From: an uncultured Alphaproteobacteria bacterium
Lineage (GTDB): Bacteria; Pseudomonadota; Alphaproteobacteria; Rhizobiales; Aestuariivirgaceae
NCBI GenBank assembly: GCA_963831645.1
Contig: CAWHQZ010000028.1
Location: 627,035 to 691,034, forward strand
Direction: 5' to 3'
Length of the DNA: 64,000 nucleotides
Shown here: in pieces, positions 1 through 64,000 of the stretch
How positions within the stretch are numbered: the first letter of the stretch is position 1
Layout of the letters: each line of letters begins with the position of its first letter
Program-made: the position numbers and the translations under genes
Notes under the pieces: generated by a model
The model's input: only the letters and a program-made list of their open reading frames with translations
Told to the model about the DNA's origin: nothing
The model's database searches: none

Positions 1-452
1 TGTCCACGACCATGCGCCTGACCCGGGACCGCCGGTTTCTGATCCGTCATCACATTATCTATGCGCCTGCTCACGATGTGTCGGATGCAGCTCTCGATCG
101 GGTGCGAGGCGACCACTATCTGGCATTCAGGAAGCGCTTTCCGATGCTCGATCAGGTGACGATCGACCATACCTGGGCGGGCTTCGTGTGCCTTTCGCAA
201 AATCACGCGCCGGGCTTCGGCAAGGTGGCGCCGAACGTATGGGCCGCGGTCTGCCAGAACGCCGTCGGCGTCACCAAGGGCACGATCGGTGGCATGCTCG
301 CCGCCGACATGGCCTGCGGCGAGGACAATCCGCTCATTTCCGACATGTTGGCGCTGGGCGGTCCACGCAAGCTCCCGCCCCAGCCGTTTCTGGGTTGGGG
401 CGTGCGAATGAGGAATCGTTGGGACCTCTGGCGGGCACGGTACGAGGAGTGA
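1..452 (+). CDS. FAD-dependent oxidoreductase (DAO-like), C-terminal part; 5' end lies outside the window
   Basis: Frame is open from the window edge to the stop at 452. C-terminal segment HTWAGFVCLSQNHAPGFG...GVTKGTIGGMLAADMACGEDNP is typical of DAO-family flavoproteins. No start codon in the window. Confidence 0.5.
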   Translation, partial: STTMRLTRDRRFLIRHHIIYAPAHDVSDAALDRVRGDHYLAFRKRFPMLDQVTIDHTWAGFVCLSQNHAPGFGKVAPNVWAAVCQNAVGVTKGTIGGMLAADMACGEDNPLISDMLALGGPRKLPPQPFLGWGVRMRNRWDLWRARYEE

Positions 453-527
453 CGGCGTTTCCGATGTTTGGTGAAACTTAACCGTGACCGCTGTTAGCGG
501 TTGATTTGTTTATGGAATGTTCTATTT

Positions 528-545
528 CTTACATACGAGTGTAAG
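528..545. promoter_or_regulatory. Inverted repeat CTTACA-N6-TGTAAG immediately upstream of vapB; candidate antitoxin autoregulation operator
   Basis: Perfect 6-bp arms seen in the sequence 14 bp upstream of the vapB ATG, with a GGGGA RBS between them and the start. Confidence 0.35.
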
Positions 546-558
546 AACTGGGGACGCA

Positions 559-804
559 ATGCGTGTTACGCAAAAGGGCCAGGTGACGATCCCGGGAGCG
601 ATCCGCCGTCAGGCAGGGCTCCTGCCGGGAACCGAAGTGGAATTCGTGCCGGAGAAGAGGGGTGTCCTCCTTCGTCCTGCCAAGACCGGCCGCAGAGCGA
701 CGCAGCGCGAACGGGAAATAGTCGACACCCTCGATCGCCTTCGCGGAAGTGCGACGATCAAGATGACGACGGAAGAAATCATGGCTTTGACAAGGGGTGA
801 ATGA
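559..804 (+). CDS. vapB: AbrB/MazE/SpoVT-family antitoxin (VapB-like)
   Basis: Starts MRVTQKGQVTIPGAIRRQAGL, the swapped-hairpin AbrB-type motif. Stop overlaps the downstream PIN gene by 4 nt (ATGA). Confidence 0.8.
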   Translation: MRVTQKGQVTIPGAIRRQAGLLPGTEVEFVPEKRGVLLRPAKTGRRATQREREIVDTLDRLRGSATIKMTTEEIMALTRGE

Positions 805-1220
805 CGGCGGTTCTGGTCAATTCGAGCGTTCTCATTGATCTCGTGACGGGGGACGCTGATTGGGGCGACCGGTCGCGGGACGCCATCCTGCGTGCAGGGC
901 GCCTCCGTGAGCTTGTCATCAACCCGATCATCTTCGCCGAAGTGTCGATCCCCTACCGAAGGATCGAGGAAATCGACGAACGGTTACCGCGAACTGTCTT
1001 TCGACGGGAAGATCTGCCGTGGGAAGCCGCATTTCTTGCCGGCAAGGCATATGTTGCCTATCGCCGGGGTGGGGGCAGCCGCCGTTCTCCCTTACCCGAT
1101 TTTTTCATTGGGGCACATGCCGCGGTCCGCGGATACGACCTGTTGACACGCGATCCAGGCGGATTTCGAAGCTACTTCCCGACGGTTTCTGTCATCGAGC
1201 CCGAACGGCCGCCGCAATGA
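801..1220 (+). CDS. vapC: PIN-domain toxin (VapC)
   Basis: MTAVLVNSSVLIDLVTGD acidic N-terminal PIN motif; 139 aa; translationally coupled to vapB. Confidence 0.8.
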   Translation: MTAVLVNSSVLIDLVTGDADWGDRSRDAILRAGRLRELVINPIIFAEVSIPYRRIEEIDERLPRTVFRREDLPWEAAFLAGKAYVAYRRGGGSRRSPLPDFFIGAHAAVRGYDLLTRDPGGFRSYFPTVSVIEPERPPQ

Positions 1221-1263
1221 TCGGCAAGCTCAGTGTGTCAGCGGCCAGAGATTGAAGAGTCGA

Positions 1264-2643
1264 TCAGGCATCGACTTCGCCCCTCGCCAGCTCCAGCCCT
1301 TGCCTTGCCCCGGCGTCGACACGCTTCGTCAACCTGTAAGCGAGCAGCCGGGCGATCCGCTGGTCGCCGAGCGGCCGGCGCTCCACGCGTTGGTGAATGT
1401 CGAGATCGGGCTTGCTGTTGCCCTCGATGATGCAGGCGCCATCGGCGAGCATGGCGACATCCCAGCCCACCACTACGAGTTGCGGAAATGCGGCATGGGT
1501 GCGGCAGGCGAGCTCCACGACCTCTTTCCAGAGCGGCAGGCGCCGGCCGGCAAAGCGCGCCCCGCTCACCGGGTGGATCTCGTTCCAGCCGACGCCGGGC
1601 CTGATCCCCATATCCGAGGCCGGTCCGATTTCGCCGGTGTTCAGATCGACGGCGGTCGCCAGTCCGCCCTGGTGGAAATTATCGACCACGCAGTTGCTGC
1701 CGATCGCCATGCGGAAGGCGGCGTTGGTCGCCTCGAAGCCGTCCTCTTCATTGCGGCAGGTGAGGATGCGCGCCGTCGCCAACGCGCCGTTGCTGATGTC
1801 GGCGAGCTCCGGGTGATTTTCGAGCCGGGGCTGGACGACGATATCGCCGGTCAGCGACTGCCGCTCGAGCCGCGCCAGCAACGCCTCTCCGCCGAGCGTC
1901 TCGCCTGAGCTGTTGCGGTACCTGTCCTCGCCGAGATAGTCCCAGCGCTCACAGTGGTGGCCGCCGTTGCCCCGACGCGGCTTGACGAAGAGGTCCGAGG
2001 CGGGAAGCGCTGGGACCGTGCCATCCGTTGTCGCGGGTTTGCCGCCGGACAGGTGGAAATGCACGGGCACGGCGCGGATTCCGAGCCTGGCGCAGTCCCT
2101 TGCGAATGCGGCCTTGTCGGCCAGCAGATCCGCTCTGTCCGTCGGCTGCAGCAGGGCATAGGCCGAGCCGACCGTTTCATGGGCCGTGAGATAGAGACCG
2201 GCATTGCGCCGCCGGCCGTCGCGATAGAGCTCGAACATGTAGTACCAGAAAGGGGCGATCGACGGGCCGGCCGCGAGCTGGAGCTGCTCGGAGAGTTGCC
2301 GGCCGATCGGCTTGCCGCTCTCGCGGCGGATTGCCGAGCCGTTTCGCCGCGTGAAGAGCGCGGCCGCGACGATCAGCGCCACCGGCCACGCGACCGTCGC
2401 GATCAGGCCTCTGAGGGGGCCGGCCGGCAACGCCCAGTAGCTCCTGCCGTGGACCCAATGCAGGTAATCGGCAGGAGACTGGGTGGCCGATGGCGCGAGC
2501 GGCCGAAACACATACCGCACGGCCATCGGCAGCCCGGCAACATCGTAGGCGAACTGTTCGGCTCTGCTGAGGAAGCGGCTCCACAATCGGCCGGTGACGC
2601 GCGCCATCCGGATTTTTAGCTGCGAAGGAACCGTGGCAGGCAT
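1264..2643 (-). CDS. alpha-L-glutamate ligase-like ATP-grasp protein; family recognition by eye only
   Basis: Intact 459-aa ORF with ATP-grasp-like motifs (NSKPDLDIH..., GxGG-rich segments), adjacent to glycosyltransferase genes. Confidence 0.6.
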   Translation of the reverse strand: MPATVPSQLKIRMARVTGRLWSRFLSRAEQFAYDVAGLPMAVRYVFRPLAPSATQSPADYLHWVHGRSYWALPAGPLRGLIATVAWPVALIVAAALFTRRNGSAIRRESGKPIGRQLSEQLQLAAGPSIAPFWYYMFELYRDGRRRNAGLYLTAHETVGSAYALLQPTDRADLLADKAAFARDCARLGIRAVPVHFHLSGGKPATTDGTVPALPASDLFVKPRRGNGGHHCERWDYLGEDRYRNSSGETLGGEALLARLERQSLTGDIVVQPRLENHPELADISNGALATARILTCRNEEDGFEATNAAFRMAIGSNCVVDNFHQGGLATAVDLNTGEIGPASDMGIRPGVGWNEIHPVSGARFAGRRLPLWKEVVELACRTHAAFPQLVVVGWDVAMLADGACIIEGNSKPDLDIHQRVERRPLGDQRIARLLAYRLTKRVDAGARQGLELARGEVDA

Positions 2644-2671
2644 GGGTTTGTCGTCACCCCGAAGTATTGTG

Positions 2672-3820
2672 TCACCGCCAGGAGCGGCTTCTGCCCTCTT
2701 GACCGCGCAGCAGGCCGCGCACCCGGCTCACCGAACGCTGCAGCTCTTCCGTCTGCGGCGATCCACGGGCAGGCTGTGGATCATCGATCCAGCTCGCCCG
2801 GCCGGTTTCGATCAGCGCCCGATGAACGATGCGCAGGTCGCGCGACCATCGCGGCGGGCCAAACCGCATGGCGAGCCTGAAGGCGGTGCTGGCGAGGTCG
2901 CCGCCCCGCCAGTGTGGCGGCGGCAGGCTCTCGCCGCTCGCCGGGCCGGGAAGCTCGGCGCGCATCGCGCGCTCCTTCTCCTCGAAGTCGAAGAGCAGCA
3001 CTGGTTTGCCCGTGGCGGCGGCTTCCGACATCATTGAGATGCTATCGGCAGTCACGATGATGCGCTGGGCCAAAGCAAGATAGGCGAAGTACGGATTTTC
3101 ATCCGGCTCGGCACGGAAGCGATGGCCGTGATGGGGAACGGAAATGGCGGCGAACAAGGCTTCCGCAACGGCGGGCGGAGTACGCGGGCTCGTCGAGACG
3201 AGCAGGCTGCCGCCCTCGTCTTGCGCGAGACGGCTCGCTTGCCGCCCGAGGCGGTCGCCCGCAGCAGGCGAAAATACATAAGGACCGCTGCTGCCGCCGA
3301 CGAGAACCGCCGTCAGCGGTCGCGGCAGGTCGGCAAGCCGCGACGACCAGGCCGTGGCCGCCCGGGCGAGGTTCTGCGGGTCCACATCGTGAAGCGGCAG
3401 CGAGTTGTGCAGCACGTTGGCGCGATCGGGCAGGCGATATTGCGGCGTCGTGATGACCAGATCGAAACGATCGAGCGTCCAGGGCGTGCCGACATAGACG
3501 AGCTTGGCCGAAGGGTTGCCGTGGCGGCGGATCCAGAATGCAACGGCTTCCGTCGGTCTTCCGGCTGCGATGACGAGGTCCGGATAGGGCGGGGCGATCA
3601 GGCGCCTGGAAGCCGCATCGACTGCCGCGAGCGATGGCGCGGCGGCCAGCCGCACCAGGGCTTCATGCCGCCGGAACGCGAGCCGCTTGACCTCGCAGGG
3701 CCAGCCCAATGCGTCCGCCAGCGTCAGCAGCTGGCGATTGTCGCCGGCGTGCGGGCTTGCTAGAAATCCACACGAGGGGCGCCCCGGCTTCGGGCGCGGT
3801 GAAACCAGGAGCACTCGCAT
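2672..3820 (-). CDS. ELM1/GtrOC1 (DUF1022) family putative glycosyltransferase
   Basis: 382-aa ORF starting MRVLLVSPRPKPGRPSCGF...LADALGWPCEVKRL, matching bacterial ELM1-like proteins. A paralog sits at 6144-7259. Confidence 0.6.
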   Translation of the reverse strand: MRVLLVSPRPKPGRPSCGFLASPHAGDNRQLLTLADALGWPCEVKRLAFRRHEALVRLAAAPSLAAVDAASRRLIAPPYPDLVIAAGRPTEAVAFWIRRHGNPSAKLVYVGTPWTLDRFDLVITTPQYRLPDRANVLHNSLPLHDVDPQNLARAATAWSSRLADLPRPLTAVLVGGSSGPYVFSPAAGDRLGRQASRLAQDEGGSLLVSTSPRTPPAVAEALFAAISVPHHGHRFRAEPDENPYFAYLALAQRIIVTADSISMMSEAAATGKPVLLFDFEEKERAMRAELPGPASGESLPPPHWRGGDLASTAFRLAMRFGPPRWSRDLRIVHRALIETGRASWIDDPQPARGSPQTEELQRSVSRVRGLLRGQEGRSRSWR

Positions 3821-3958
3821 TCACATGGGCCATGAGTCTCGGCCGCGGTACGACCCGGGCTCTCCTGATCTTGAAATCGAGTCCGCTGCTGGATGTCATG
3901 ATGACGTCACACGGCGCACGTTACCCGACGCCTTCATCCAACGGTAGTTCCAAAAGCC

Positions 3959-4876
3959 ATGACCGACGCTGAAACACCCCGGCCCCACGTATTCATCCAG
4001 TCGAATGCCAAGCAGTCCATCGGGGCGGTCGTTTCCGCCTACTCGATGCAACGGAATTCCCGCCATGCCGGCGAGTTCGACGTCACGATCATGCGTCAGG
4101 AAGACTATCCTTTTTTCAGGGCGCGCGATGGTCAATCCTACCGCCGCCATGGTGTCAGCCGCGTATGGCAGGAAAACGATCTGCAGTCCTTCTCGCTGAC
4201 CCGCTTCCTGCCGCCCCAGCTCATGGGCTATCGGGGCCGGGCGCTCGTCGTCGATCCGGATGTCTTCGCCGTCGGTGACGTGTGGGAGTTGTTGACACGT
4301 GACATGCAGGGCAAGGCCATTTTGTGCCGGCGGTCGAAGTTCAAGAACGGCGCCTTCGCCACCAGCGTGATGTTGCTCGACTGCACCAGGCTGAAGCACT
4401 GGAATGTGGAGCAGGGCTTCGCGGAGCTTTTCGATGGCCGGCGTGACTACCACAACTGGATTTCGCTCCTCATGGAGCCGCGTGAGAGCATTGGATTTTT
4501 TGAAGACGAGTGGAACGATTTCGACCGGCTGACGCCGGCCACCAGGATGCTGCACAACACGCGCCGCCGCACCCAGCCGTGGAAAACCGGCCTGCGGGTC
4601 GACTATACGCCGACCGAGTTCGTGCCGGTGATCGGCTGGATCATGCGCGCCCGCCGGGTCCTGTTCGGTGCGCACGGGCTGCTCGGCAGCTATGCGCGCC
4701 ATCCTGACCGCAACCAGGAGGCCTTCTTCTTCGGCCTGCTGCGGGAATGCGTCGATGCGGGTCTTCTGGACGCCGCGACGCTGAAGGAGGCGATGGCACG
4801 GAACCATATCCGTCATGACGCTCTCGATGTCATGGCTCAGGCTCCGCGGCCGCCGCAGCTTAAGGCCGCGCACTGA
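3959..4876 (+). CDS. hypothetical protein, possible nucleotide-sugar transferase (DPD motif)
   Basis: 305-aa ORF with a clean ATG at 3959, divergent from the ELM1-like gene. No family recognised beyond ALVVDPDVF. Confidence 0.45.
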   Translation: MTDAETPRPHVFIQSNAKQSIGAVVSAYSMQRNSRHAGEFDVTIMRQEDYPFFRARDGQSYRRHGVSRVWQENDLQSFSLTRFLPPQLMGYRGRALVVDPDVFAVGDVWELLTRDMQGKAILCRRSKFKNGAFATSVMLLDCTRLKHWNVEQGFAELFDGRRDYHNWISLLMEPRESIGFFEDEWNDFDRLTPATRMLHNTRRRTQPWKTGLRVDYTPTEFVPVIGWIMRARRVLFGAHGLLGSYARHPDRNQEAFFFGLLRECVDAGLLDAATLKEAMARNHIRHDALDVMAQAPRPPQLKAAH

Positions 4877-4901
4877 GGACCGGCGCGCCGGCGAATCCTG
4901 G

Positions 4902-6162
4902 ATGACCCGGGAAGAAGCTGCAGAAATCGCCGGCGCCGGTGACCGGCAGCTGCGGGTCGCGCTGTTCACCGGCAACTACAACTATATCAAGGACGGAGTG
5001 GCCCTGACCCTCAACCGGCTGGTACGGTTCCTCGAAGGAGAATCACGTCGCCGTTCTCGTCTTTGCGCCCACCGGTCCCAAGCCTGCGTTCGATGCCGCC
5101 GGAGACCTCGTATCGGTTCCCTCGTTAGCCATTCCGCGCCGTCCCGAATATCGCTTTGCGCTCGGTCTCCCGGCTCGCGCGCGCCGACGCCTTGCGGAGT
5201 TCAGGCCCAATCTTTTTCATATCGCCGTGCCCGACCTGCTCGGCTATCGGGCTCTCAAGCTTGCCGGCGAATGGAATGTTCCCGCCGTCGCCTCGTTTCA
5301 CACGCGCTACGATCAGTATCTGAAGTTCTACGGTCTCGGCCGCCTCGAGCCCCTCGGCAAGAGATACCTGCGCCATTTCTACGGAAAATGCCGGCAGGTG
5401 TATCCGCCGACCGAGTCCATGGCCGCCATCATCCAGGAGGAGGGCTACTCCGAGAGGGTCCGCATCTGGTCGCGCGGCGTGGATGTCGAGTTGTTCGATC
5501 CCGGCCGGCGCAGCCGGCAGTGGCGCCGGTCGCTCGGCATTGCCGATGAAGAAGTAGTGGTGAATTTCACCAGCCGCCTCGTCAAGGAAAAGAACACCGG
5601 CCTTCTGACCCGTATCTTCGCCGCCCTGCAACGGGAGGGCTCGACGTTCCGGGCCATGATCGTCGGCGACGGGCCGGAAGAAGGGAGCATGAAGGCGGCA
5701 TTGCCCGATGCGGTCTTCACCGGTTTCCTCCACGGCGAAGCACTCGCGCGCGCGTATGCGTCCTCGGATGTTTTTCTGTTTCCCAGCGAAAGCGAGACGT
5801 TCGGCAACGTGACGCTCGAGGCCATGGCGAGCGGCCTGCCGGCGGTGTGTGCCGATGCCAGCGGCAGCCGCTCACTGGTGATCGAGGGGGTCACGGGATT
5901 CCTTGTCGGAGCCGGGAACGAAGCGGGTTTCCCGGCGCGGCTTGGCGCTCTCGTCGGCAGCAGTGACCTGCGCGCACACATGGGCAAGGAGGCGCGGGCA
6001 CGCGCTTTGACGTTCGCATGGGACGATACGCTCGCGAACCTGCTGGCGAGCTACAGGGATGTCGTCGCGGCGGGGGACACCGTGGTGCATGGCGGAACGG
6101 CTGGCGGGTTGAAGCCGGCGCCGCTCGTTTGCGGAGCGGAGAAATGGCCGGCGTCGCAGTGA
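4902..6162 (+). CDS. glycosyltransferase family 4 (GT-B, EX7E-type); apparent +1 frame break near 5037-5041
   Basis: N-terminal part LRVALFTGNYNYIKDGVALTLNRLVRFLEGE is in frame 3 and the remainder NHVAVLVFAPTGP...FLFPSESETFGNVTLEAMASGLP is in frame 1. Deleting one base in GGAGAA restores LEGNHVAVLVFAP. Confidence 0.75.
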
Positions 6163-7259
6163 AGCAGAGGGGGAAGACGGCGCCCCGCCGGCAAACTCGC
6201 CCGCCGAAAGTATGGCTTCTTTCGCAGGGTCGCCGCGGTGATCTCGAGCAGATGCTGGCGCTCGCGCAGGCGCTGTCGTGGCCGCTCGAGATCAAGACGC
6301 TCGTCTTCCGGCCTCCGGCAATCCCGGCACTGGCGCCCGTGCTGCTCAGGGCCGATGCCAGCGATAGAATCGCGCCGCCGTGGCCCGATGCCATCGTCTG
6401 CGCCGAGGCAATGGCCAGTGTGATCGCCCGGCGCCTGCGCCGCCTCGCCGGAGGAAGCACGAAGCTGATCTGCCTCGGCCGGCCGGCCGGCGATCCGGCT
6501 GCCTTCGACCTGGTGCTTACGACGGCACAGTATCATCTGCCGCCGCGGCCCAATGTGGTCGAACTGTCGCTGCCGCTCACCGCTCTACCGGCGCCCGACA
6601 GTCCGGCCGGCGGCAAGCTCGCCGCGCGGTTGACGGGCGACCGCCCGCACATCGCGGTCGTGATCGGCGGCGCGAGCTCTCCCGAAATCCTCGATCGAGC
6701 CGTCGCCCGGGAGCTTGCGGGCGCCCTTTGCCGGTACGCGGTCCAGAACGGCGGCACTCTGCATGTGGTTACGAGCCCGAGGACGAGCCGCAAGGTGTCC
6801 GATGAGCTTCTCAGGCGCTTTCCCCCGCCGCACCGCGTTCATGTCTATGACCGCGCGGCGAACAATCCCTACCGGCGGATCCTCGCCCTCGCCGATGAGA
6901 TCATCGTGACCAATGACAGCGTCTCCATGGTCGCCGATGCGCTGGCGACGCAGAAGCCCGTTTATGTCTATGCGCTCCCGCGCTCCCGTAACCTCGCTTT
7001 TCGCGCATCAGAATGGTGTCGCCGCAACGTGCTGGAGACTGCCCCCGTGCCGCTGTTGCTGCGGCCCGTTGCATGGCTGTTCGACAAGGGGTTCGTCGAG
7101 ACGAGCGCCGACCGGTCGCGCCTTTTCCGCCGGCTTGCGAGCGAGGGCCGCATCGGCTGGTTCGGCGGCGCCCCGCCGCTGGTCCGCAGGGACGCGGTGG
7201 CTCACGACTTGGAAACCGCCGTCGCCCGGGTGAAAGATCTGTTTCCGAAGGCCGGTTGA
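6144..7259 (+). CDS. ELM1/GtrOC1 (DUF1022) family putative glycosyltransferase, paralog 2
   Basis: Contains KVWLLSQGRRGDLEQMLALAQALSWPLEIK and IAVVIGGASSPEI, paralogous to 2672-3820. The start is ambiguous (ATG at 6144 overlaps the GT4 stop). Confidence 0.6.
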   Translation: MAGVAVKQRGKTAPRRQTRPPKVWLLSQGRRGDLEQMLALAQALSWPLEIKTLVFRPPAIPALAPVLLRADASDRIAPPWPDAIVCAEAMASVIARRLRRLAGGSTKLICLGRPAGDPAAFDLVLTTAQYHLPPRPNVVELSLPLTALPAPDSPAGGKLAARLTGDRPHIAVVIGGASSPEILDRAVARELAGALCRYAVQNGGTLHVVTSPRTSRKVSDELLRRFPPPHRVHVYDRAANNPYRRILALADEIIVTNDSVSMVADALATQKPVYVYALPRSRNLAFRASEWCRRNVLETAPVPLLLRPVAWLFDKGFVETSADRSRLFRRLASEGRIGWFGGAPPLVRRDAVAHDLETAVARVKDLFPKAG

Positions 7260-7327
7260 GTTTCCGGAAACCCTGCCCTTGGGCAACGTCCTCCGGGCGC
7301 CTATCGGTGGGGTAGGCGGCGGGCAAA

Positions 7328-8929
7328 TCACTCCGTCGCATTCCCGCGCAGCCGGACTTCCATCAGGTCGAGCTCGCGCTCGATGCGTCGCCGCGTCTCG
7401 TCGATCAGTTCACCCGAGCGCTCGAGCTCGTGAATTTGGGCGCGCTCATGGGCGATGAGGCTGAGCTCGATTTCCTCGCGCAGTCTCGCCAGCTCCCGGC
7501 GCTGCTCTTCGCTGTGCGCACGCAGCTCGAGCAGGCCGAGCCGGTCGGCAATGCTCGCCTCGAGGGCATCCACCATGTCGCGGGGAAGCTTCCGTTCGCT
7601 GCCGATTTCGCCGACCCGCCTGGCGACGGCTGCCAGAGCCTTGCGCCGCGCTGCGGCTTCGGCGCTTTGTTCCCGGCGGCGCTCCTCGCGGGTGAGCTCG
7701 GAGAGGCCGAGCGCTTTGACGACGAAAGGCAGGGACAGTCCCTGGCCGACCAGCGTGACGAGGATGACGCTGAAGGTGAGGAATATGATGAGATCGCGGT
7801 CCGGGAACGCCTCGCCGGTAGCCGTCACCAGCGGGATCGCCAGGGCCGCGGCGAGGGAAACGATGCCGCGGACGCCGGTGTATCCGAGGGCGAACACCAC
7901 CCGCCAGCCCGGTGCGGGGTCGCGCCGGGAGAGGCCAGGGACCACCCACCGCGGAACATAGGTGGCAGGAAAGACCCACAGGAATCGCGCCACGATCACT
8001 ACCGCGCTGGTCAGCGCCGCGTACGCCAGGAGCGTGGCGGCCGGCAGACCTTCCATGCGGTTAAGCAGAAATCCCGCCTGTGAGCCGGTCAGCAGAAACA
8101 CCAGGCCCTCGATGACGTAGATGACGAAATCCCAGAAGAAGACCCCCTGCAGCCGGGTGGCTGCGCTGATGAGCCGGGGCCCGTTCCAGCTGACGTAGAG
8201 CCCTGCCGCCACGGTGGCCAGCACGCCTGAGCCGCCGAAATGCTCCGGCACCCAGAACGCGACGTAGGGCGTTATCAGCGCGAGGGTGATCTCGACGCGC
8301 GCGTCGCTTGCCCAGCGCCGCAGGCGCAACACGAGCCACCCGACCAGGATGCCATAGGCGATCTCGCCCGCCACAATGGCGAGAAAGGTTCCCGTCGCAT
8401 GCCCGATCGAAAAGGTCCCGAGGCTGATCGCAGTGACGGCGAAGCGGTAGAAGGTGAGGGCGGTCGCATCGTTGACGAGCCCCTCTCCCTCGAGAACGAG
8501 CGCGAGGCGCCGCGGCACCCTGAGGCGACGCAGGATGGCCAGCGGCGCTATGACGTCGGGCGGCGAAACGATCGCACCCAGCAGAAAGGCGACATTCCAG
8601 TCGAGCCCGATCAGCCAGTGGGCCGCCGCGGCGACCAGCAGGGTAGTGAACGCGACGCAGCCGACGGCGAGGAGCGCGATGGGGCGAAGGTTGAAGCAGA
8701 ACTCCCGCCAGCTCATGGAGACGCCGGCGACGTAGATGACCGGAGGCAGGATCAGCAGCAACACCAGTTCGGGGGCGAGTTCGATCTTCGGCATCCCCGG
8801 CGCGAGGCTCAGCAGAACGCCTGCGACGACGAGCAGGATGGCCGGTGGGATCTTCAGCCGGCGGGCTGTCACGGCGACGCCTGCCAGGATCGCGAGGAGG
8901 AGGACCAGGATTCGGATCGTCTCGATCAC
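7328..8929 (-). CDS. Na+/H+ antiporter (CPA1/NhaP type) with C-terminal coiled-coil/charged tail
   Basis: 533 aa with about 11 hydrophobic helices (LVNDATALTFYRF) and a long charged C-terminal region. Confidence 0.75.
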   Translation of the reverse strand: MIETIRILVLLLAILAGVAVTARRLKIPPAILLVVAGVLLSLAPGMPKIELAPELVLLLILPPVIYVAGVSMSWREFCFNLRPIALLAVGCVAFTTLLVAAAAHWLIGLDWNVAFLLGAIVSPPDVIAPLAILRRLRVPRRLALVLEGEGLVNDATALTFYRFAVTAISLGTFSIGHATGTFLAIVAGEIAYGILVGWLVLRLRRWASDARVEITLALITPYVAFWVPEHFGGSGVLATVAAGLYVSWNGPRLISAATRLQGVFFWDFVIYVIEGLVFLLTGSQAGFLLNRMEGLPAATLLAYAALTSAVVIVARFLWVFPATYVPRWVVPGLSRRDPAPGWRVVFALGYTGVRGIVSLAAALAIPLVTATGEAFPDRDLIIFLTFSVILVTLVGQGLSLPFVVKALGLSELTREERRREQSAEAAARRKALAAVARRVGEIGSERKLPRDMVDALEASIADRLGLLELRAHSEEQRRELARLREEIELSLIAHERAQIHELERSGELIDETRRRIERELDLMEVRLRGNATE

Positions 8930-9084
8930 GTGAATCTCTCACAGTTCCCCGGCCAAGCCCCGATAGATTGACCCAGCCGCGCCGGAAACGCTATCCCCCG
9001 AAACATTCGCGTGACAAAGATGTGGATGTTGTATGACAGTGAAATGCGCTAAGAGGACCGGGTCGAAACCGGGTTAGTGGTGCG

Positions 9085-10633: not shown

Positions 10634-10649
10634 TAGCTGCGCCGCCTCA

Positions 10650-38059: not shown

Positions 38060-38061
38060 CA

Positions 38062-39138: not shown

Positions 39139-39214
<76 letters not shown>

Positions 39215-51358: not shown

Positions 51359-51560
51359 TTATTGCGCCTTGCTCCGGATTGCCTTCGCGCGAGCTTCCAT
51401 TTCTTCCGCCTGGGAATGGCGCCCGGTCTGCCGTAGCAGCGCCGCGTAACCTTCGAGGCTCGCCGCCACCTGGGGATGCTCGGGCCCGAGAGTCTTTTCA
51501 TCGATGCTGCGCTCTTGCGCTCGCTCAATGAGATGCTCAACAAATCGCCGTGGTTTAATG
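51359..51560 (-). pseudogene. TPR-protein C-terminal remnant
   Basis: ...DEKTLGPEHPQVAASLEGYAALLRQTGRHSQAEEMEARAKAIRSK is a kinesin-light-chain-type TPR. Upstream it collides with a plus-strand gene fragment. Confidence 0.35.
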
Positions 51561-51950: not shown

Positions 51951-52028
51951 GTTGTCCCAACTCCCGCGATAGCGGGTTCGTTCAATCCCCTAACTGAAGA
52001 CAGGCCCTAGAGGTCCTGTGTAACGGGA

Positions 52029-55005: not shown

Positions 55006-55831
55006 GCTGGCCCGCCCCCCGTTTCCTTTCGAACGGAACATCTTAGCGCATCATTGATCGTATGTTCAGTCGTCGCCATCGGAACCGAACCTGCCCCCTG
55101 ATCCCAGTGGGTACAGATATTCCCGAAATCGATAGCGCCGCAAAGAAGGTTATGCCCAGCCGTGCTCCCGAACAGGCCCCCAACCGTCAGCAAACGTCGG
55201 TATATTTGACGGTATATTTGAAGTTATTGATCATTAAACCTAATAGTTACAATATGTTGTGCTGACTTGTCGAGTCACGCATGCGCACCATTCTTGCACA
55301 ACGTCAGCCAAGACCATCGGGGTCGAACGCCTACAGCGGATCGCCTGCGGCGAAGATGGCGCAAGCGAAGCTGCTCGATCGTCGTATCCCTCGGGGCTTG
55401 GTCGCCCGTCTCGCTCTCCTTCGGGTTGCTTGCCCGCTTGGAGAGCTTGCCGGCGGGCGGAGCGGAGGATTGCACGTCCTGTCGTAACTCCGTACGGGCC
55501 GTCTCTTTGGTCATAGCTCGCGTCGGCATCGAAGAACTCCTTCCTGGGGCAGATAGATCCCTCGTAAGCAGCGTATCGACGCGATTTCGTGCCGGCTGTG
55601 ATAAATCTCACACGCCCGCGCGACTCGGCCCAACGGCCATGCGGCGGACAAACGAACAAACCCGTCGCCAGGCGTTTGCATGTTTCGGGTCGCTGGCCGC
55701 GATACGGAGCAGACGCTCGTGAACTGGAACGTGGTAGGAAGAGATCTCCAGGCTTTGGCCGTTTCGGGACAGCGCGAGTGGGACCGGCCTATCGGCTGAC
55801 CGAAGTCATCAACCGCAGCGAATACAAGTCT

Positions 55832-55993
55832 TCAGCCGGTCTTGGCGCCTTCGTCCGGCAGCTGCTCGGGGTCGCGGGCAACTTTGCGTTTGGCCGCCTC
55901 TTCTTCGCGGCGCTGCAGCTTTTCGTCTCTCTTGCGCTGCTTGGCGCGAGTTCGCTCGCTGCGCAGCTGCCTGTAGCTGGGCTTGAAAGCCAT
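55832..55993 (-). CDS. small highly basic/charged protein (53 aa), unknown function
   Basis: MAFKPSYRQLRSERTRAKQRKRDEKLQRREEEAAKRKVARDPEQLPDEGAKTG. Preceded by a strong RBS GAGGAGG 6 nt upstream. Confidence 0.45.
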   Translation of the reverse strand: MAFKPSYRQLRSERTRAKQRKRDEKLQRREEEAAKRKVARDPEQLPDEGAKTG

Positions 55994-56261
55994 AGGATCC
56001 TCCTCTTGCTGGACGACCTGCCGCCTTCCTTGCACTCGGCGTTGGCCGGGCGGGGCAAAATCCACACCAACGTTCCGGCAAAGAAGATTACTTCGCCGTA
56101 GGGAAAATGCAGCAAGATTCCACGCCCGGGAGCGTGAATGGCAGGTGCTGGAACGACGATGCCGGAAAGCACTGCCTGCCGGCGCCGTCTGGCGGCTAGA
56201 AATCCATGTCAAGCACTAACGCCAGGCCGGCTGGCCAGCGCATTTTTTTGGCGAAACTTAC

Positions 56262-56471
56262 CTAAACCGCCTTGAGGTTTTCCGCCGATGTCTTGCCGCG
56301 CTTGGGGTCGCGTTGTTCCTCGTAGGAAATCTTCTGGCCTTCGTTCAGGCTGCTCATGCCGGCTCTTTCAACCGCCGAGATGTGGACGAAAACGTCCGAT
56401 CCGCCGCTGTCCGGCTGAATGAAACCAAAACCCTTGTTGACGTTGAACCACTTTACAGTTCCGACAGGCAT
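56262..56471 (-). CDS. cspA: cold-shock protein, CspA family
   Basis: [34 protein letters not shown]...; RNP1/RNP2 motifs; RBS GGAGGA. Confidence 0.9.
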
Positions 56472-56707
56472 CACCTTCCTCCAATTCAGTCGCTGGCGCC
56501 GCATCGCGTGAGCGGCACATCAAACTGTACCGCAAAACGGCAAGGAACCAGCGTCTTGTGGCAAGGCTCGCCGGCAATCCAACCAGAATGACGCACTCTT
56601 AATAGGGTTACCGGGCATTATTGCAAGACCGAAAAATCGTAGGCCCGCTTGGGCACGGCTGCAGAAACGGCTTATTATATCGGCAGCGGATAGAGATAGG
56701 ACAGCAC

Positions 56708-56890
56708 ATGCAATTCACCGTAGGCCTCAAGCTCAAGGGCAAGTCGCGTCACATGGCGGTCACCGCTGAAGACGCGCTCATAGCCGCGCTCAAGGTAAAG
56801 ACGGAATACCCGGAGGCCCGCATCGTCTATGTCCGTCCACAGAACCGCCGCGGTGACGCGCGCCATCCACCCGTTGCCCACGAGGACTGA
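56708..56890 (+). CDS. small hypothetical protein (60 aa)
   Basis: MQFTVGLKLKGKSRHMAVTAEDALIAALKVKTEYPEARIVYVRP.... A weak AGGA 8 nt upstream. Confidence 0.35.
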   Translation: MQFTVGLKLKGKSRHMAVTAEDALIAALKVKTEYPEARIVYVRPQNRRGDARHPPVAHED

Positions 56891-57017
56891 CAACAATAGG
56901 GCGGAGCCTGACCGGACCTGGACCAGCGCGCCTGCTTGACAAGTGGTATATTTGCTCCCCCTAATAGCAAAAGCTCAGCAAACTGCGATCCTCCAACGAG
57001 GGTGGCAGACGATCGCC

Positions 57018-57686
57018 ATGAGTCTCCGGGATGGGTTCGAACTCGTCATCTTCGACTGCGACGGCGTTCTCGTCGACAGCGAGGTTCTCGCCGCCCAGTG
57101 CCTGTCGCACCTACTGACACACTACGGAATGGCGACATCGATGAGCGATGTGTTCAATGACTACCTGGGAGCCAACTTCAGGATTGTCCAGAACGCCTTC
57201 CGGCGCGCCGTGGGGCGACCGCTGCCCCAGCGCTTCCAGGCGGAGTTCATGGCTGACCTGGCGCGCCGCATCTCGGCTTCGCTGAAGCCGGTCAGAGGAA
57301 TTGAAGACGTGCTTACGCGCCTGGGAATTCTCTCGTGCGTCGCTTCATCGAGCCAGCGGGCGCGGATCGCCCACTCGCTGGCGGTCACCGGTCTCGATCG
57401 CTTCGGGCTGCGGATATTCGATGGCTCGATGGTGGCGCGGAGCAAACCTGAGCCTGATCTTTTTCTCCACGCCGCCCAGTGCATGGGAGCGACGCCCGCC
57501 CGGGTGCTGGTGGTCGAGGACAGCGTGAAGGGTGTCACGGCGGCGAAGGCGGCCGGGATGACCGTGTGGGGGTTCATCGGCGGCAGCCACTACGCGCACC
57601 TCGACGGGAACGCGCTGCTCGCCGCCGCCGGCGCCGACCGCGTATTCCGTGACATGAGGGAGTTTGCCGCGGATCGGGATCGCTGA
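57018..57686 (+). CDS. HAD-superfamily hydrolase (beta-phosphoglucomutase-like subfamily)
   Basis: Motif I VIFDCDGVLVDSE; C-terminal VEDSVKGVTAAKAAGM. Confidence 0.75.
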   Translation: MSLRDGFELVIFDCDGVLVDSEVLAAQCLSHLLTHYGMATSMSDVFNDYLGANFRIVQNAFRRAVGRPLPQRFQAEFMADLARRISASLKPVRGIEDVLTRLGILSCVASSSQRARIAHSLAVTGLDRFGLRIFDGSMVARSKPEPDLFLHAAQCMGATPARVLVVEDSVKGVTAAKAAGMTVWGFIGGSHYAHLDGNALLAAAGADRVFRDMREFAADRDR

Positions 57687-58656
57687 ATGGGCGGCGACAA
57701 TGAGAGCTCGAACTCGATGACGCGGCCCGGGCCGGCTGGCTCTACTTCATCGCCGGCAATACCCAGGGCGAGATCGCCAGGAAACTGAATGTCTCTCGCC
57801 CGACGGCGCAGCGCCTCGTCTCGCTGGCTCTCTCCGCGCGCCTGATCACCTTCCGCCTCGAGCATCCGATTGCCGCCTGCATGGCGCTCGCGAGGGACCT
57901 GAAGGATCGCTTCGGCCTGGTCTACTGCGAAGTCGTGCCGACCAATTCGGAGGCGCCTTCCTCGGCCGCCGGCATCGCCAAGAGCGCGGCAGCGTTTCTC
58001 GAGCATCGGCTGCGCTCTGACGTCCCGGCCATCATTGCCCTTGGAACGGGACGGGCGCTCAGGGCCGCGGTCGAAGAGCTGCCGGCGATGAGCTGTCCCA
58101 GCCATCAACTGGTTTCCCTGGTCGGCAATATTTCGCCCGATGGCTCGGCGAGCTTCTATGATGTGCTGACCCGCATGGCGGAATCTGACCCAGGCGCCGC
58201 ATTACCCCATGCCGCTGCCGCTGTTCGCATCGTCCGCCGAAGAGCGCGATCTGTTTGCCAGCCTGTCCACGGTCAAGAAGGTGCGCACTCTCGCACAGCG
58301 GGCCGACTTGACGCTGGTCGGCGTCGGCCAGATCGACCTCGAGGCGCAGATCTACGTGGATGGTTTCGTCAGCCGCGGCGATCTACTGGAATTCATCCGC
58401 AACGGCAGCATCGGCGAAATCGTCGGTTGGTGTTTCGACGCTAAAGGGGAAGATCGTCGGCGGCCCCTCGCGCGACAGAATCACCAGCGTGCCGCTGGAG
58501 ATCCCGGCCAAGAGGCTCATCGTCGGCGCGGCCGTCGGCGCCGCCAAGGCAGCGGCGATCCGAGCCGCTGTCACCGGCAGGCTGCTGAGCGGGCTCATCA
58601 CCGATGAGCAAACCTCGAGGGCAATTCTCCGCCTTGACGCAAAGTCAACCGTGTGA
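57687..58656 (+). CDS. SorC-family sugar-binding transcriptional regulator (polyol operon regulator); about three frame breaks
   Basis: HTH LDDAARAGWLYFIAGNTQGEIARKLNVSRPTAQRLV plus a sugar-binding domain, spread over ORFs 57881-58444, 58209-58607 and 58360-58656. Confidence 0.6.
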
Positions 58657-58704
58657 GAGCATTTGCTTGCAAAAGGAGCAAATGCTCCAGTTAGGGAGGA
58701 AGTC

Positions 58705-60020
58705 ATGAAGCGTCTAGCAGGCATTATCCTCGGTGCCGTGTCGTTCCTCGCTGCCGGAATGGCTGCGGCGGAGACCAAGCTCACCATCGCTACCGTAAAC
58801 AACGGCGACATGATCCGCATGCAGGGTCTGACCGAAGATTTCACGGCCAAGAACCCGGACATAACCCTCGAGTGGGTGACACTCGAAGAAAACGTTCTGC
58901 GCCAAAAGGTAACCACCGACATCGCAACCAAGGGCGGACAGTTCGATGTGCTGACGATCGGGACTTATGAGGTGCCGATCTGGGCTGGCAAGGGGTGGCT
59001 CGTACCCCTCGAGAACCTCGGCGCCGACTATGACGTGGACGATCTCCTGCCGGCCATACGGGCCGGCCTCAGCCACGAGGGCAAGCTCTACGCAGCGCCG
59101 TTTTACGGTGAAAGCTCCATGGTGATGTATCGCAAGGACCTCATGGAAAAGGCGGGGCTCACCATGCCGGACGCGCCGACGTGGGAGTTCATCGCCGAGG
59201 CGGCGCGAAAATGACCGACAAGGCAAACGAGGTCTATGGAATCTGCCTGCGCGGCAAGGCCGGCTGGGGCGAGAACATGGCCTTTCTTTCGGCAACGGCG
59301 AACTCCTTCGGAGCCCGCTGGTTCGATGAGAACTGGAAGCCGCAGTTCGACCAGCCGGAGTGGAAAAAGACCATGGACTTCTATGTGAGATCTGATGAAA
59401 GACGCCGGGTCCTCCCGGCGCCTCCTCCAACGGTTTCAACGAGAACCTGGCGCTGTTCAACTCGGGCAAATGCGGCATGTGGATCGATGCCACGGTAGCC
59501 GCCTCGTTCGTGACCAACCCGAAGGAATCAAAGGTGCACGACAAGGTCGGTTTCGCGCTCGCCCCCGATACGGGTCTGGGCAAGCGCGGCAACTGGCTGT
59601 GGGCATGGTCGCTCGCCGTTCCGGCCGGTTCGCAGAAGTCGGACGCGGCGCAGAAGTTCGTCTCCTGGGCAACCAGCAAGGATTACCTCGGCATCGTCGC
59701 GGCCGAAGAAGGCTGGGCCAACGTTCCACCGGGCACGCGGGCCTCGCTCTACAAGAACCCTGAATATCTGAAGGCGGCGCCGTTCGCGCAGATGACGCTG
59801 AACTCGATCAACTCTCGCCGACCCCACGAAGCCGACCGTAAAGCCGGTGCCTTATGTCGGCGTGCAGTTCGTGGCGATCCCGGAGTTTCAAGGCATCGGG
59901 ACGACCGTCGGCCAGATGTTCTCGGGTGCGCTGGCCGGCGACATGACGGTCGACGAGGCGCTCACCAAGGCCCAGGACGCGGTCACCCGCGAGATGACCA
60001 AAGCAGGCTACATCAAGTAG
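58705..60020 (+). CDS. smoE: ABC transporter periplasmic sugar/polyol-binding protein (SmoE-like); about four frame breaks
   Basis: Signal peptide MKRLAGIILGAVSFLAAGMAAA, RBS AGGGAGGA. SBP family-1 segments are spread over ORFs 58663-59214, 59181-59498, 59477-60181 and a final frame ending ...TKAGYIK. Confidence 0.6.
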
Positions 60021-60105
60021 CCTCACCTCCCCGACTTGCACCGTCCGGCTTCGCCGCCGGACGGCGCCTTTTTGCAAGGCCATCGACAGCGACGAGTGGG
60101 AGCCT

Positions 60106-60978
60106 ATGGCGAGCCGTCACACCACCGCTGCAGCCAATCTTGCGGTCGCCCCCACGGTCGCGGTGCTGTTTCTGTGGATGATCGTGCCGCTGGGCATGAC
60201 CGTTTACTTCTCGCTGCTGCGCTACAATCTGCTCGACCCCGGCACAGAAACCTTCATCGGCCTCGTCAACTACCGCTACTTTCTTACCGATCCGGCGTTT
60301 CTCACCGCCCTCGGCAACACGTCGAAGCTGGTGGGCGCGGTGCTGGCGATCAGCGTGGTTGGCGGCGTGCTGCTGGCACTGCTGCTCGATCAGCCGTTTT
60401 TCGGGAGGGAAATCGTGCGCCTCATGGTGATCGCGCCATTCTTCGTCATGCCCACGGTAAGCGCGCTCGTATGGAAAAACCTGCTGATGCATCCGGTTTC
60501 GGGCTTCTTCGCCTGGATCGCGAAATCGCTGGGCCTGCAGCCGATCGACTGGTTCGCCGACGCGCCGTTGACGGCAGTCAGCCTGATCGTGGCGTGGCAG
60601 TGGTTGCCGTTCGCGACCCTAATTCTGCTGACCGCGGTTCAGTCGCTCGACGAAGAACAGAAGGAGGCGGCTGAAATGGACGGAACGCCGCCCTTGTCCT
60701 TCTTCTTTCATATCGTGCTGCCTCATCTGGCACGCCCGATCACCGTGGTCATCCTGATCGAGACGATCTTCCTGCTCAATGTGTTTGCAGAAATTCTGGT
60801 GACGACGGGCGGCGGACCGGGGCAGCAGACGACCAACATTCCGTTCCTCGTCTATGCCCAGGCGCTCCTGCAGTTCGATATCGGAGGGGCCTCGGCGGGC
60901 GGCATCATCGCCGTGGTGATTGCCAACATCGTGGCCTTCTTCCTGGTCCGGATGATCGGCCGCAACCTGGAGGGCTAG
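60106..60978 (+). CDS. smoF: ABC transporter permease (SmoF-like, MalF-type)
   Basis: Intact 290 aa with the EAA-loop region. Confidence 0.75.
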
Positions 60979-60983
60979 CAGAC

Positions 60984-61812
60984 ATGGCTCGGGCGCTGTC
61001 GGTGAGACGAAGGATGGTAACCACGCTCGCGGCATGGACGGCCGGCTTCGTCATCTTCTTTCCGATACTGTCGATGTCCCTCACGAGCTTCAAGACCGAG
61101 CTCGACGCCTTCTCGACGCCGCCGCAGTTCCTGTTCTTCGACTGGACAGTCGAGAACTACGCAATCGTCCAGGAACGCTCCGACTATTTCCGCTTCGCAA
61201 TGAATTCCATCGTGCTGTCGTTTGGAGCCGCATTGCTGAGCCTGCTGTTCGCAATTCCGGCGGCGTGGTCCATGGCATTCGCCCCGCGCAAGCGGACCAA
61301 GGACCTGCTGATGTGGATGCTGTCGACCAAAATGATGCCGCCGGTCGGCGCGCTGATACCGATCTACCTGCTGTTTCGCGACGGCGGTCTTCTCGATACC
61401 CGCATCGGCCTGATCGGCGTTCTGTTCCTTCTCGACCTGCCGATCGTCGTGTGGATGCTCTATACCTATTTCAAGGAGATTCCGGGTGAAATCCTGGAAG
61501 CCGCCCGCATGGACGGCGCTTCGCTGTGGAACGAGCTCGTGTATGTTCTCGCTCCCATGGCGGTGCCCGGCATCGCGTCCACCTTGCTGCTCAACATCAT
61601 TCTGACCTGGAACGACTCGTTTTCGACGCTCAACCTGACGACCTCGGATGCAGCGCCGCTGACCGCCTTCATCGCATCCTACTCGAGCCCCGAGGGGCTG
61701 TTCTGGGCCAAACCGTCGGCTGCCTCGACCCTCGCCATCGCGCCGATCCTGGTCCTTGGCTGGCTGGCGCAGCGCCAGCTGGTGAGGGGCCTCACTTTTG
61801 GGGCCGTCAAAT
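60984..61812 (+). CDS. smoG: ABC transporter permease (SmoG-like, MalG-type)
   Basis: Six TM segments with EAARMDGAS loop. The ORF track reads through into the ATPase gene, so the native stop is probably obscured by an indel near 61800-61815. Confidence 0.65.
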
Positions 61813-61841
61813 GGTCGCCAACTTGTGAGGGCTCGCACCCA

Positions 61842-62880
61842 TGGGCACAATCGTTCTCAAGCGTGGAAAAGAGCTTCGGTGAAGTCGTCATCATTCCGGG
61901 CGCCGACCTGACGATCGACGACAACGAATTCGTGGTGTTTGTCGGTCCCTCGGGCTGCGGCAAGTCCACGCTGCTGCGGCTGATCGCGGGGCTCGAGGAC
62001 CTGAGCGGGGGTGACATCTTCATCGACGGCGTGAGCGCCCGTCAACGTGCCGCCGGCCAAACGCGGACTGTCGATGGTGTTCCAGTCCTACGCGCTCTAT
62101 CCGCACATGAGCGTGCGCAACAATATCGCTTTCGGCCTGAAAATGGCCGGACAGTCGAAGGAAGAAATCGCCGCCAGGGTGGGCAAGGCGGCGCAGGTCC
62201 TCAACCTCACCGAATACCTCGACCGCAAGCCCAGGCAACTGTCCGGCGGCCAGCGCCAGCGCGTAGCCATCGGACGGGCGATCGTCCGCGAGCCGAAGGC
62301 GTTCCTGTTCGATGAGCCGCTGTCCAATCTCGATGCCGCGCTCCGGGGGCAGATGCGAATCGAGATCATGCAGCTTCACCAGTCGCTGGGGGCGACGATG
62401 ATCTATGTCACCCACGACCAGGTGGAAGCCATGACGATGGCGGACCGCATCGTAGTTCTCAACAAGGGCAACATCGAACAGGTCGGCTCGCCACTGGAGC
62501 TGTACAACCAGCCGCAGACGCTGTTCGTCGCCGGCTTCATCGGCTCGCCCAGCATGAACTTCGTCACCGGGCAGGCAGCGCAAAAGCTTCGCGCTCACAC
62601 GGCCGGGATACGTCCCGAACACATCGCGATCGACAAGAAAAGCGGAACCTGGCGGGGAACGGTGGAACTGGCGGAGCACCTCGGGGCGGACACCATCCTG
62701 CACGTGGAGACCCAGCTCGGCCGCCTCACGGTCCGCACGCCCGGCGAACTCTCGGTCGCGCCGGGCGACAAGTTATGGCTGACACCCATCGCCGACCGCC
62801 TCCATCGCTTCGACAGCGACGGCAAAGCACAACGCAACGGATCGGGAGGATATCGACGGGGGCGCGATGTATCTGGATAA
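61842..62880 (+). CDS. smoK: ABC transporter ATP-binding protein (SmoK/MalK-like); two frame breaks (about 61870 and about 62040)
   Basis: Walker [14 protein letters not shown]-loop, signature [14 protein letters not shown], Walker [11 protein letters not shown], and the MalK-type C-terminal regulatory domain. Confidence 0.75.
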
Positions 62881-63645
62881 GCTGAAGCTCGAAGGCAAGG
62901 TCGCGGTGGTTACCGGGGGCGGACAGGGGATAGGTGCTGCCTGCTCACGGGCGCTCGGCGAAGCGGGGGCGCAGGTGATCGTCGCCGACCTGCTGGAGGA
63001 ACGAAGCGAGGCGTGCGCTGCCGGGCTGCGCGAGCTCAAGATCAAAGCCCACGGCATGCGGCTCGACGTTACGAAATCGAAGGAGGTCGACGCAGCGTCG
63101 GCGGCGGTGTGAAGAACCACGGCCAGGTCGACATCCTCGTCAACAATGCCGGCGTCGCCAACAGCGACGTCAGGGCCGAGGACACCAGCGACGAGCATTG
63201 GCGCTTCCACATGGACGTGAACGTCGACGGATTGTTCTGGTGTTGTCGCAGCTTTGGGCGGGCGATGCTGCGGCAGGGCTCGGTGGGGGATCGTCAACGT
63301 CGGATCGATGTCCGGCTTCATCGTCGACGAAACCGCAGCCGCAGGCGTTCTACAACGCTTCGAAAGCCGCGGTCCATCATCTCACGCGATCGCTCGCTGC
63401 CGAATGGGCGAGGCGCGGCGTGCGCGTGAACGCGGTGGCTCCGACCTACATCGAAACGCCCCTGACTGCCTTCGGCATCAAGGAAAATCCGGAAATGTAC
63501 AAGACCTGGCTCGAGATGACTTCCATGGGGCGGGTGGGCCAGCCGGACGAGATCGCATCGGTTGTGCATTTCCTCGCTTCCCGACGCGGCGAGCCTCATG
63601 ACCGGGGCGATCGTCGCCGTCGACGGCGGCTATACCTGCTGGTAG
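62867..63645 (+). CDS. short-chain dehydrogenase/reductase (sorbitol dehydrogenase-like); two to three frame breaks
   Basis: [10 protein letters not shown] cofactor motif, [20 protein letters not shown] catalytic YxxxK; spread across three frames. Confidence 0.65.
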
Positions 63646-63675
63646 CATACGTTCGGTCATCGGATCGCCGTGTCG

Positions 63676-64000
63676 GAATCTCTTTTCACTCAAGGGTCGG
63701 GTTGCGCTCGTTACCGGCGCTTCCCGCGGCCTTGGGCTGGCCATGGCGAAAGCGCTCACCGATCATGGAGCCCAGGTTTTCGTAAGTGGCCGCGATCCGC
63801 GCACCCTGGCCGACGCGGCGAGCCGGACCGGGGCAGCACCGATCGCCTTCGACGTGGGCGATGCGCGGGCCTGCCGGGCGGCGCTCGAGGAGGTGATCGG
63901 CAAACGTGGTCGCCTCGACATCGTCGTCAACAATGCCGGAGTTCAGCATCGCGCCGCCCTGCTCGACTGGACGGACGAGGATTTCGAACGGATCCTTGCC
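63676..64000 (+). CDS. second short-chain dehydrogenase/reductase, 5' part (continues beyond window); frame break at the very start
   Basis: LKGRVALVTGASRGLGLAMA...VVNNAG. A probable GTG start at about 63676 is one base out of frame with the body (a T-run). Confidence 0.6.

Follow-up and report, generated by a model that had tools for sequence, protein, structure and literature searches.

Single-base frame breaks across a 64 kb segment of an Aestuariivirgaceae contig: probable consensus errors of a long-read assembly

The window analyzed here, that is, the whole 64,000-nucleotide stretch of contig CAWHQZ010000028.1 (assembly GCA_963831645.1, from an uncultured alphaproteobacterium of the Aestuariivirgaceae), carries genes of alphaproteobacterial character whose reading frames are repeatedly interrupted by very small insertions and deletions (indels), and it is the nature of these frame breaks that concerns us. 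The sequence contains 62% G+C and zero ambiguous bases, and its longest homopolymer measures 7 nt. Polysaccharide and sugar-nucleotide genes occupy 1-20 kb, a structural cluster of phage type lies at 20.6-35 kb, and 35.6-39.2 kb holds prsT (a PEP-CTERM-type TPR gene), an ExeA-like ATPase and a tRNA-Phe; an accessory stretch of mixed content then extends to approximately 55.8 kb, and a sorbitol/mannitol (smo) operon is found at 57.7-64 kb. Altogether, we count at least 37 frame-breaking indels in approximately 23 genes, or 0.58 per kb, on both strands and in transport, sugar-nucleotide, regulatory, phage, restriction-modification and integrase genes. Judging from sequence comparisons, we put the probability at about 0.9 that these breaks are consensus errors of a long-read assembly which was not corrected with accurate reads. 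We infer that the organism itself almost certainly has the underlying genes in intact form.

The evidence for individual breaks comes from DNA alignment to 84%-identical relatives, from protein homologues and from the coordinates of matches to hidden Markov model (HMM) profiles. In a set of species-representative genomes, the closest match reached only 84% protein identity (metagenome-assembled genomes, MAGs, of the Dongiaceae). Nearer relatives came from a large protein collection, namely the metagenome contigs L081, L082 and L163 from ENA, which bear Flye-style 'contig_N' names and are approximately 84% identical to the window at the DNA level. L081 and L082 align to positions 55831-63993, such that the smo region could be studied in a three-way alignment, while L163 aligns to positions 1306-10620 and covers the left end. 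Breaks in the phage cluster were read as frame switches from the open reading frames (ORFs) of 80 IMG/VR relatives, and those in prsT were placed by tblastn with P0362 and other full-length homologues of approximately 800 amino acids. Along the window, the breaks are the following.

3762-3766, minus strand: ELM1-like (PF06258) gene (2672-3833), +1 insertion GA[A]ATC at 3764, near the N-terminus, from the L163 alignment.
5031-5041 (5033-5041), plus strand: GT4 glycosyltransferase gene (4902-6162), +1 insertion, from the L163 alignment, with the junction LEG/NHVAVLVFAP at 5041.
10154-10158 (10156), plus strand: CYTH-CHAD gene (9085-10636), +1 insertion, from the L163 alignment; CHAD profile positions 5-152 in frame 1 and 138-227 in frame 2.
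14340-14365, minus strand: GT2 glycosyltransferase gene, frame change; PF00535 positions 1-45 in frame -1 and 58-116 in frame -2, with the peptide PAVCILVPAHDE in the other frame.
17775-17779 (approximately 17777), minus strand: phosphomannomutase (PMM) gene, +1 insertion, GGG[T]CTCGGC on the coding strand; the N-terminal peptide FREYDARWLYESEINLPGVHALGLG is out of frame with the PGM_PMM_I-IV body.
18595-18599 (approximately 18597), minus strand: manC (mannose-1-phosphate guanylyltransferase), +1 insertion; NTP_transferase profile positions 2-213 and the beta-helix/isomerase domains in different frames, junction read.
20856-20866, plus strand: terL, +1 insertion TCGA[A]TTCAG; IMG/VR homologues pass from frame 3 to 1.
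21266-21272, plus strand: terL, +1 insertion CGA[G]ATCT; IMG/VR homologues pass from frame 1 to 2.
22737-22741 (22740), plus strand: portal gene, +1 insertion GAGAATCTGG; 32 homologue junctions, KATVYE/IWCKK.
26485-26610, plus strand: gene upstream of the capsid gene, probable frame change, weakly supported; frame 1 of L083 (8950-9984) has matches in frame 1 as well as frame 2 of the window.
28683-28688, plus strand: small gene after the major capsid gene, -1 deletion; 18 homologue junctions, frame 2 to 1.
31628-31636, plus strand: phage structural gene (30518-32100), -1 deletion; 41 homologue junctions, frame 2 to 1.
36150-36175, plus strand: prsT, paired -1/+1 indels 20 nt apart with a local TGA at 36155-36157; the frame-1 peptide VIAADK matches P0362.
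36541-36546, plus strand: prsT, +1 insertion, frame 2 to 3, from tblastn with P0362 and others and from TIGR02917 coordinates.
37424-37429, plus strand: prsT, +1 insertion, frame 3 to 1, from tblastn with homologues.
37514-37518, plus strand: prsT, +1 insertion CTG[A]GTCGAG, frame 1 to 2, from tblastn with homologues.
40640-40950, minus strand: hsdM, two frame changes by profile frames, -3 to -1 near 40940 and -1 to -3 near 40660.
44200-44320 (approximately 44256), plus strand: transglutaminase-like gene, frame change, approximate; the Transglut_core match stops at profile position 72/108 with the ORF still open.
47450-47520 (approximately 47500), plus strand: TIGR04222-domain gene, probable frame change, approximate; profile positions 75-228 present, the first 74 out of frame.
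51000-51025 (approximately 51010), plus strand: VWA-domain gene, frame change; VWA_2 positions 2-82 in frame 1 (50446-51021) and VWA_3 positions 83-153 in frame 2 (51002-51316), two related models, so that continuity is approximate.
54517-54697, plus strand: tyrosine integrase gene, frame change; Phage_integrase profile positions 5-69 in frame 2 and 108-169 in frame 1.
57709-58445, plus strand: SorC-type regulator gene, deletion at 57711 and insertions at 58182 and 58443 (1 bp each), from alignment with L081 and L082.
59205-59817, plus strand: smoE, deletion at 59207 and insertions at 59389, 59410 and 59815 (1 bp each), from the three-way alignment.
61859-62040, plus strand: smoK, 2-bp deletion at 61861 and 1-bp insertion at 62038, from the three-way alignment.
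63106-63679, plus strand: first SDR gene, deletion at 63108 and insertions at 63284, 63329 and 63580 (1 bp each), from the three-way alignment.
63677, plus strand: second SDR gene, 1-bp insertion, from the three-way alignment.

A previous sequence-only reading of the window had already listed frame changes inside conserved genes, and we find them at or close to almost all of the positions that it gave, including both junctions it had rebuilt by hand, which are exact to the residue (at 5041 and at 22739/22741). Its figure of more than 30 broken genes is somewhat high, approximately 23 being supportable, although more than 30 sites are indeed supported. The same numbers of breaks as it reported emerge from the three-way alignment for smoE (four), smoK (two) and the regulator (three), and its 'at least four' sites in prsT become five once homologues are aligned, whereas the two to three sites given for the SDR turn into four in the first SDR gene and one in the second. 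The breaks it saw in hsdM, the transglutaminase-like gene, the TIGR04222-like gene, manC, PMM, GT2 and the integrase all have a counterpart in HMM coordinates or peptides, approximate in the case of the transglutaminase and approximate and probable in the case of TIGR04222. Some of its positions need revision. Namely, the break placed at about 52880 seems to lie nearer 52825, and the one proposed at 32170 is not a frame change, as the stop at 32101-32103 parts two genes that are likewise separate in the relative L084. The break at 3764, on the other hand, is an addition to that list, and after its correction the ELM1-like gene shows 85% amino acid identity and zero internal stops. Two further 1-bp differences in the L163 alignment, at 1843 and 2018, are errors of L163, the ATP-grasp domain being unbroken in the window ORF.

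Two of the broken genes deserve closer description. Within 35640-38913, the prsT gene, encoding a TIGR02917-type TPR lipoprotein of approximately 805 codons after correction, adjoins the ExeA-like AAA_22 ATPase on the opposite strand, a pairing which suggests a PEP-CTERM/exosortase-associated locus. Its in-frame TGA at 36155 was weighed as a nonsense mutation and rejected, since the -1/+1 pair flanks the triplet and the peptide read in the other frame exactly matches the homologue P0362. In hsdM (40167-41351), HsdM_N and N6_Mtase positions 82-215 lie in frame -3 and N6_Mtase positions 33-73 in frame -1. Between its NVLFEGGAGEKVRRNLL motif and the C-terminal helix, the same gene also appears to have lost approximately 100 residues in frame, and its match to the N6_Mtase profile stops at position 215/311. 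As a point error could not produce such a loss, this internal deletion is a candidate for a real lesion.

Are the genes otherwise decayed? For the test of selection, the window was projected onto the gene models of the relatives with the indels neutralized, which gave 19 reference models covering 13 window genes. After this correction the genes translate without a premature stop, the sole stop being situated two codons from the end of the CYTH-CHAD gene, and no in-frame stops were seen in the homologue-supported phage genes either. In other words, nonsense codons account for 0 of the 37 disruptions, an outcome with a chance of 3e-4 even if nonsense mutations made up only 20% of real disruptions. 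What is more, the dN/dS ratio (omega) of frameshifted genes (0.05-0.20) is close to that of well-aligned intact neighbors (0.06-0.24); the SorC-type regulator, for example, has zero stops after correction and an omega of 0.10. The smoE gene carries four breaks and yet retains 95% amino acid identity to L082 with an omega of 0.049, its dN of 0.027 being lower than those of the intact smoF (0.034) and smoG (0.038). In natural mutation, substitutions far outnumber indels, and four real indels in the 1.3 kb of smoE should therefore bring along tens of extra substitutions, which are absent. The indels themselves are also of a narrow kind. Namely, 16 of the 17 DNA-localized events measure exactly 1 bp, and over all localized sites insertions prevail over deletions by 22 to 7 (p = 0.004), the opposite of real bacterial decay, which is biased toward deletions. 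Finally, all DNA-localized sites are private to the window in comparison with L081, L082 and L163, whose orthologues are in frame at the aligned positions.

The sequence-only reading had proposed homopolymer indels as the mechanism, with clustering in homopolymers as its own check; having run this check, we find the proposal refuted. Namely, the 17 DNA-localized sites fall in runs of length 1 (8 sites), 2 (5) and 3 (4), with none in runs of 4 or more, and this is indistinguishable from the background per base (56%, 31%, 9.5% and 3.3% for lengths 1, 2, 3 and at least 4). Insertions are associated instead with GANTC, the N6-adenine methylation motif of CcrM in Alphaproteobacteria: by a permissive criterion, applied alike to random positions, 10 of the 22 localized insertions are GANTC-associated where 1.8 would be expected, an approximately five-fold enrichment that 0 of 4000 permutations reached. 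The contexts recur as GGAATCT, GAGATCT, GAGAATC, GAATTC and GAAATC, with the general form G-A-(N)-A/T-T-C. By a rough estimate from base composition, approximately 220 copies each of GATC and GANTC would be expected in the window, which holds 437 and 103, respectively. A GATC (Dam-type) context was tried in place of GANTC and set aside, its association being weak and GATC too common at 437 sites. The window contains no ccrM gene. That Nanopore assemblies contain errors near methylated motifs, including GANTC, has been described for agrobacteria (PMC12710330) and Brucella (PMC12392509). Separately, an extra T occurs in the same coding-strand 9-mer, G[T]CTCGGCA, in the unrelated PMM (17775-17779) and prsT (36171-36175) genes, which may point to another error context that recurs, in addition to GANTC.

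If the breaks come from the way in which the sequence was produced, they should follow sequencing technology among related loci. We therefore ran an all-against-all search for frame junctions over 83 homologous smo loci, counting only junctions that at least 40 other loci supported and that lay at a distance from true gene boundaries; it should be noted that shadow-frame ORFs spanning such boundaries yield false calls. High-support frame breaks were present in 5 of 10 loci with long-read names, while the 72 loci from short-read assemblies or isolates had zero (Fisher p = 9e-6); the signal in the window is thus well above chance. The five broken control contigs comprise three Microflora Danica MAGs, one Canu 'tig' and one ENA 'contig_N', and some of their breaks fall at GAATTC or GAATC. 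The long-read MAGs of Microflora Danica (MFD-LR) are Nanopore-only, assembled with metaFlye and polished with one round of Medaka 1.8.0 (PMC12313526). The nearest relatives also contain split genes in their own sequence, among them ATP-grasp, Amidohydro_1, GATase and Fe-superoxide dismutase (Sod_Fe) genes (L163 at 16889 and 17065; L081 at 1621-2425 and 16114-16846; L082 at 1372-2062).

Taken together, zero nonsense codons, intact purifying selection, an insertion-biased 1-bp spectrum and restriction to long-read contigs speak for the sequence-only reading's preference for assembly noise over mass pseudogenization, at least as far as comparative sequence can decide the matter. The window would most probably be part of a Nanopore-only metagenome contig, assembled by Flye and polished once, in whose consensus single bases, mainly spurious insertions, would have persisted at approximately 0.6 per kb independently of homopolymers. 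Roughly half of the insertions lie in GANTC-resembling contexts in which Nanopore base-calling is known to misbehave, possibly through methylation. Very recent, genuine pseudogenization in a lineage that has lost selection on many genes would account for the large number of broken genes, several of them hit repeatedly (prsT five times, smoE and the first SDR four times each), for the clustering of breaks in some operons next to clean neighbors, and for larger lesions that look real, such as the hsdM deletion. We nevertheless consider it very improbable, as it would have to leave nonsense at 0 of 37 with dN and omega not elevated in the broken genes, proceed almost exclusively by 1-bp events with a 3:1 bias toward insertion, prefer GANTC-like motifs to slippage-prone runs and, among related loci, strike only long-read contigs; moreover, no transposase was noticed among the fragments scanned, although no search aimed at insertion sequences (IS) was made. 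Slightly less credible still are real indels from an unknown insertion-biased mutational process at GANTC-like (CcrM) sites, too recent for substitutions or nonsense mutations to have accumulated. Biological recoding, be it programmed ribosomal frameshifting, transcriptional slippage or RNA editing, has conserved downstream frames as its only support and is the most remote explanation of all: shifts of +1 and -1 are both present without a common slippery heptamer, zero sites lie in runs of 4 or more although the window has runs of up to 7, and the genes of the relatives are continuous, with L081 and L082 in frame at the orthologous positions, which effectively refutes it.

Explanations that retain artefacts as the main component carry more weight. 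One may suppose that most breaks are errors, with a real minority in hsdM, the integrase, GT2, the prophage or the dense smo operon. The uneven density of indels, the hsdM deletion beyond the reach of point errors and the commonness of decay in prophage and island genes all point this way, but no subset of breaks stands out by size, direction or context, and the densely broken smoE and SDR genes are those under the strongest purifying selection; such a mixture is unlikely, if worth keeping in mind. A little less likely than this is a blending of co-assembled strains in the consensus, a sub-type of artefact in which collapsed strains produce hybrid columns and local bursts of indels. It would explain the clustering and would suit what is apparently a metagenome contig, but the dense regions show neither the excess of substitutions nor the elevated dN that blending should also produce.

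That said, several observations weigh against reading the breaks as long-read consensus errors. The artefact status of the indels is a strong inference and not a proof for any one of them, and the platform is likewise deduced from contig naming and from the relatives, not from the source record. Breaks are unevenly spread: the smo region has 14 in 6.3 kb, the left end, where the power of detection was equal, has 3 in 9.3 kb (p = 5e-4), and the three-way alignment shows zero in smoF and smoG. Such a pattern is not predicted by a uniform error process, and one must consequently assume something further under the artefact reading, for example that coverage was locally low or that strains were mixed. 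The excess of insertions is unexpected too, as deletions usually dominate in Nanopore raw reads. As for methylation, GANTC is at several sites (e.g. 22740 and 37516) present only in the erroneous sequence and not in the likely corrected one, and the published GANTC-linked errors are mostly substitutions (PMC12710330, PMC12392509). For these reasons, we put forward the link between methylation and the GANTC-associated insertions as a hypothesis.

Some features of the surroundings may be recorded as well. The phage cluster (20600-35500) contains terminase, portal, major capsid (27380-28348) and tail- or baseplate-like genes, an adjoining integrase is absent, and the capsids of its IMG/VR relatives are at most 85% identical to that of the window. 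PHROGs, Pfam and NCBIfam gave zero matches in 24.1-26.6 kb and 33.7-35.5 kb, where the G+C signal at third codon positions (GC3) is also weak; the frame changes listed at about 24600, 24950, 25255 and 35440 in these stretches, and the one at about 50600, which likewise lacks informative homologues, therefore keep the rank of proposals. A reference-free GC3 frame map of the entire window was too noisy for counting breaks. One intact tRNA-Phe (GAA) at 39139-39214 separates the PEP-CTERM genes from the accessory stretch; being only 76 nt long, it is uninformative on the error rate. Synteny with L081 and L082 restarts at approximately 55.8 kb, where the accessory stretch ends. When att-like direct repeats were sought on either side of a possible island at this tRNA, nothing convincing emerged, and such an island is thus unproven. 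An ORF of 186 amino acids lies within 51437-51994.

The properties of the breaks make our finding a warning about data quality and not a statement about biology. Throughout these 64 kb, the limits of ORFs, the labeling of pseudogenes, domain architectures and every gene called 'truncated' or 'fused' should be regarded as provisional; the candidates for real decay are confined to lesions of more than a base or two, the hsdM internal deletion being an example. As 0 of the 17 DNA-localized sites lie in runs of 4 or more, homopolymer-aware filters would miss most of the errors; with approximately half of the insertions at GANTC-like motifs, re-polishing with methylation-aware models suggests itself as the remedy. 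The wider problem has been recognized: Kastor addresses the gene-fragmenting indels of long-read assemblies (PMC12007338), and the paper on the MFD-LR catalogue inspected its own MAGs for Nanopore-associated errors (PMC12313526).

How does the window compare with known systems? Like programmed frameshifts, its breaks let the protein continue in a neighboring frame. The sites of such frameshifts (in prfB, dnaX and IS3-family transposases) are, however, conserved among relatives and marked by slippery motifs, while those of the window are private and lack such a motif. Pseudogene-rich genomes, such as those of Mycobacterium leprae and Sodalis glossinidius, resemble the window in having many interrupted genes, some at several points, but in them nonsense mutations and multi-base deletions occur, deletions prevail, dN/dS is raised and IS elements have often expanded; among the breaks of the window, nonsense codons, multi-base deletions (apart from one of 2 bp), a bias toward deletion and a raised dN/dS are absent. 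With Nanopore errors at methylation motifs (Dam GATC, Dcm CCWGG, CcrM GANTC), the window shares the GANTC-like enrichment in an alphaproteobacterial sequence, although most cases on record are substitutions, affecting few of the motif copies, and the window has 1-bp insertions. Finally, the indel errors of long reads (Nanopore or PacBio continuous long reads, CLR) depart from the window in that the classic account stresses homopolymers, whereas the window sites never lie in runs of 4 or more and insertions dominate among them. They share with it, on the other hand, the splitting of conserved genes of all classes by single-base indels into adjacent ORFs in neighboring frames, as well as their absence from short-read assemblies of related loci.

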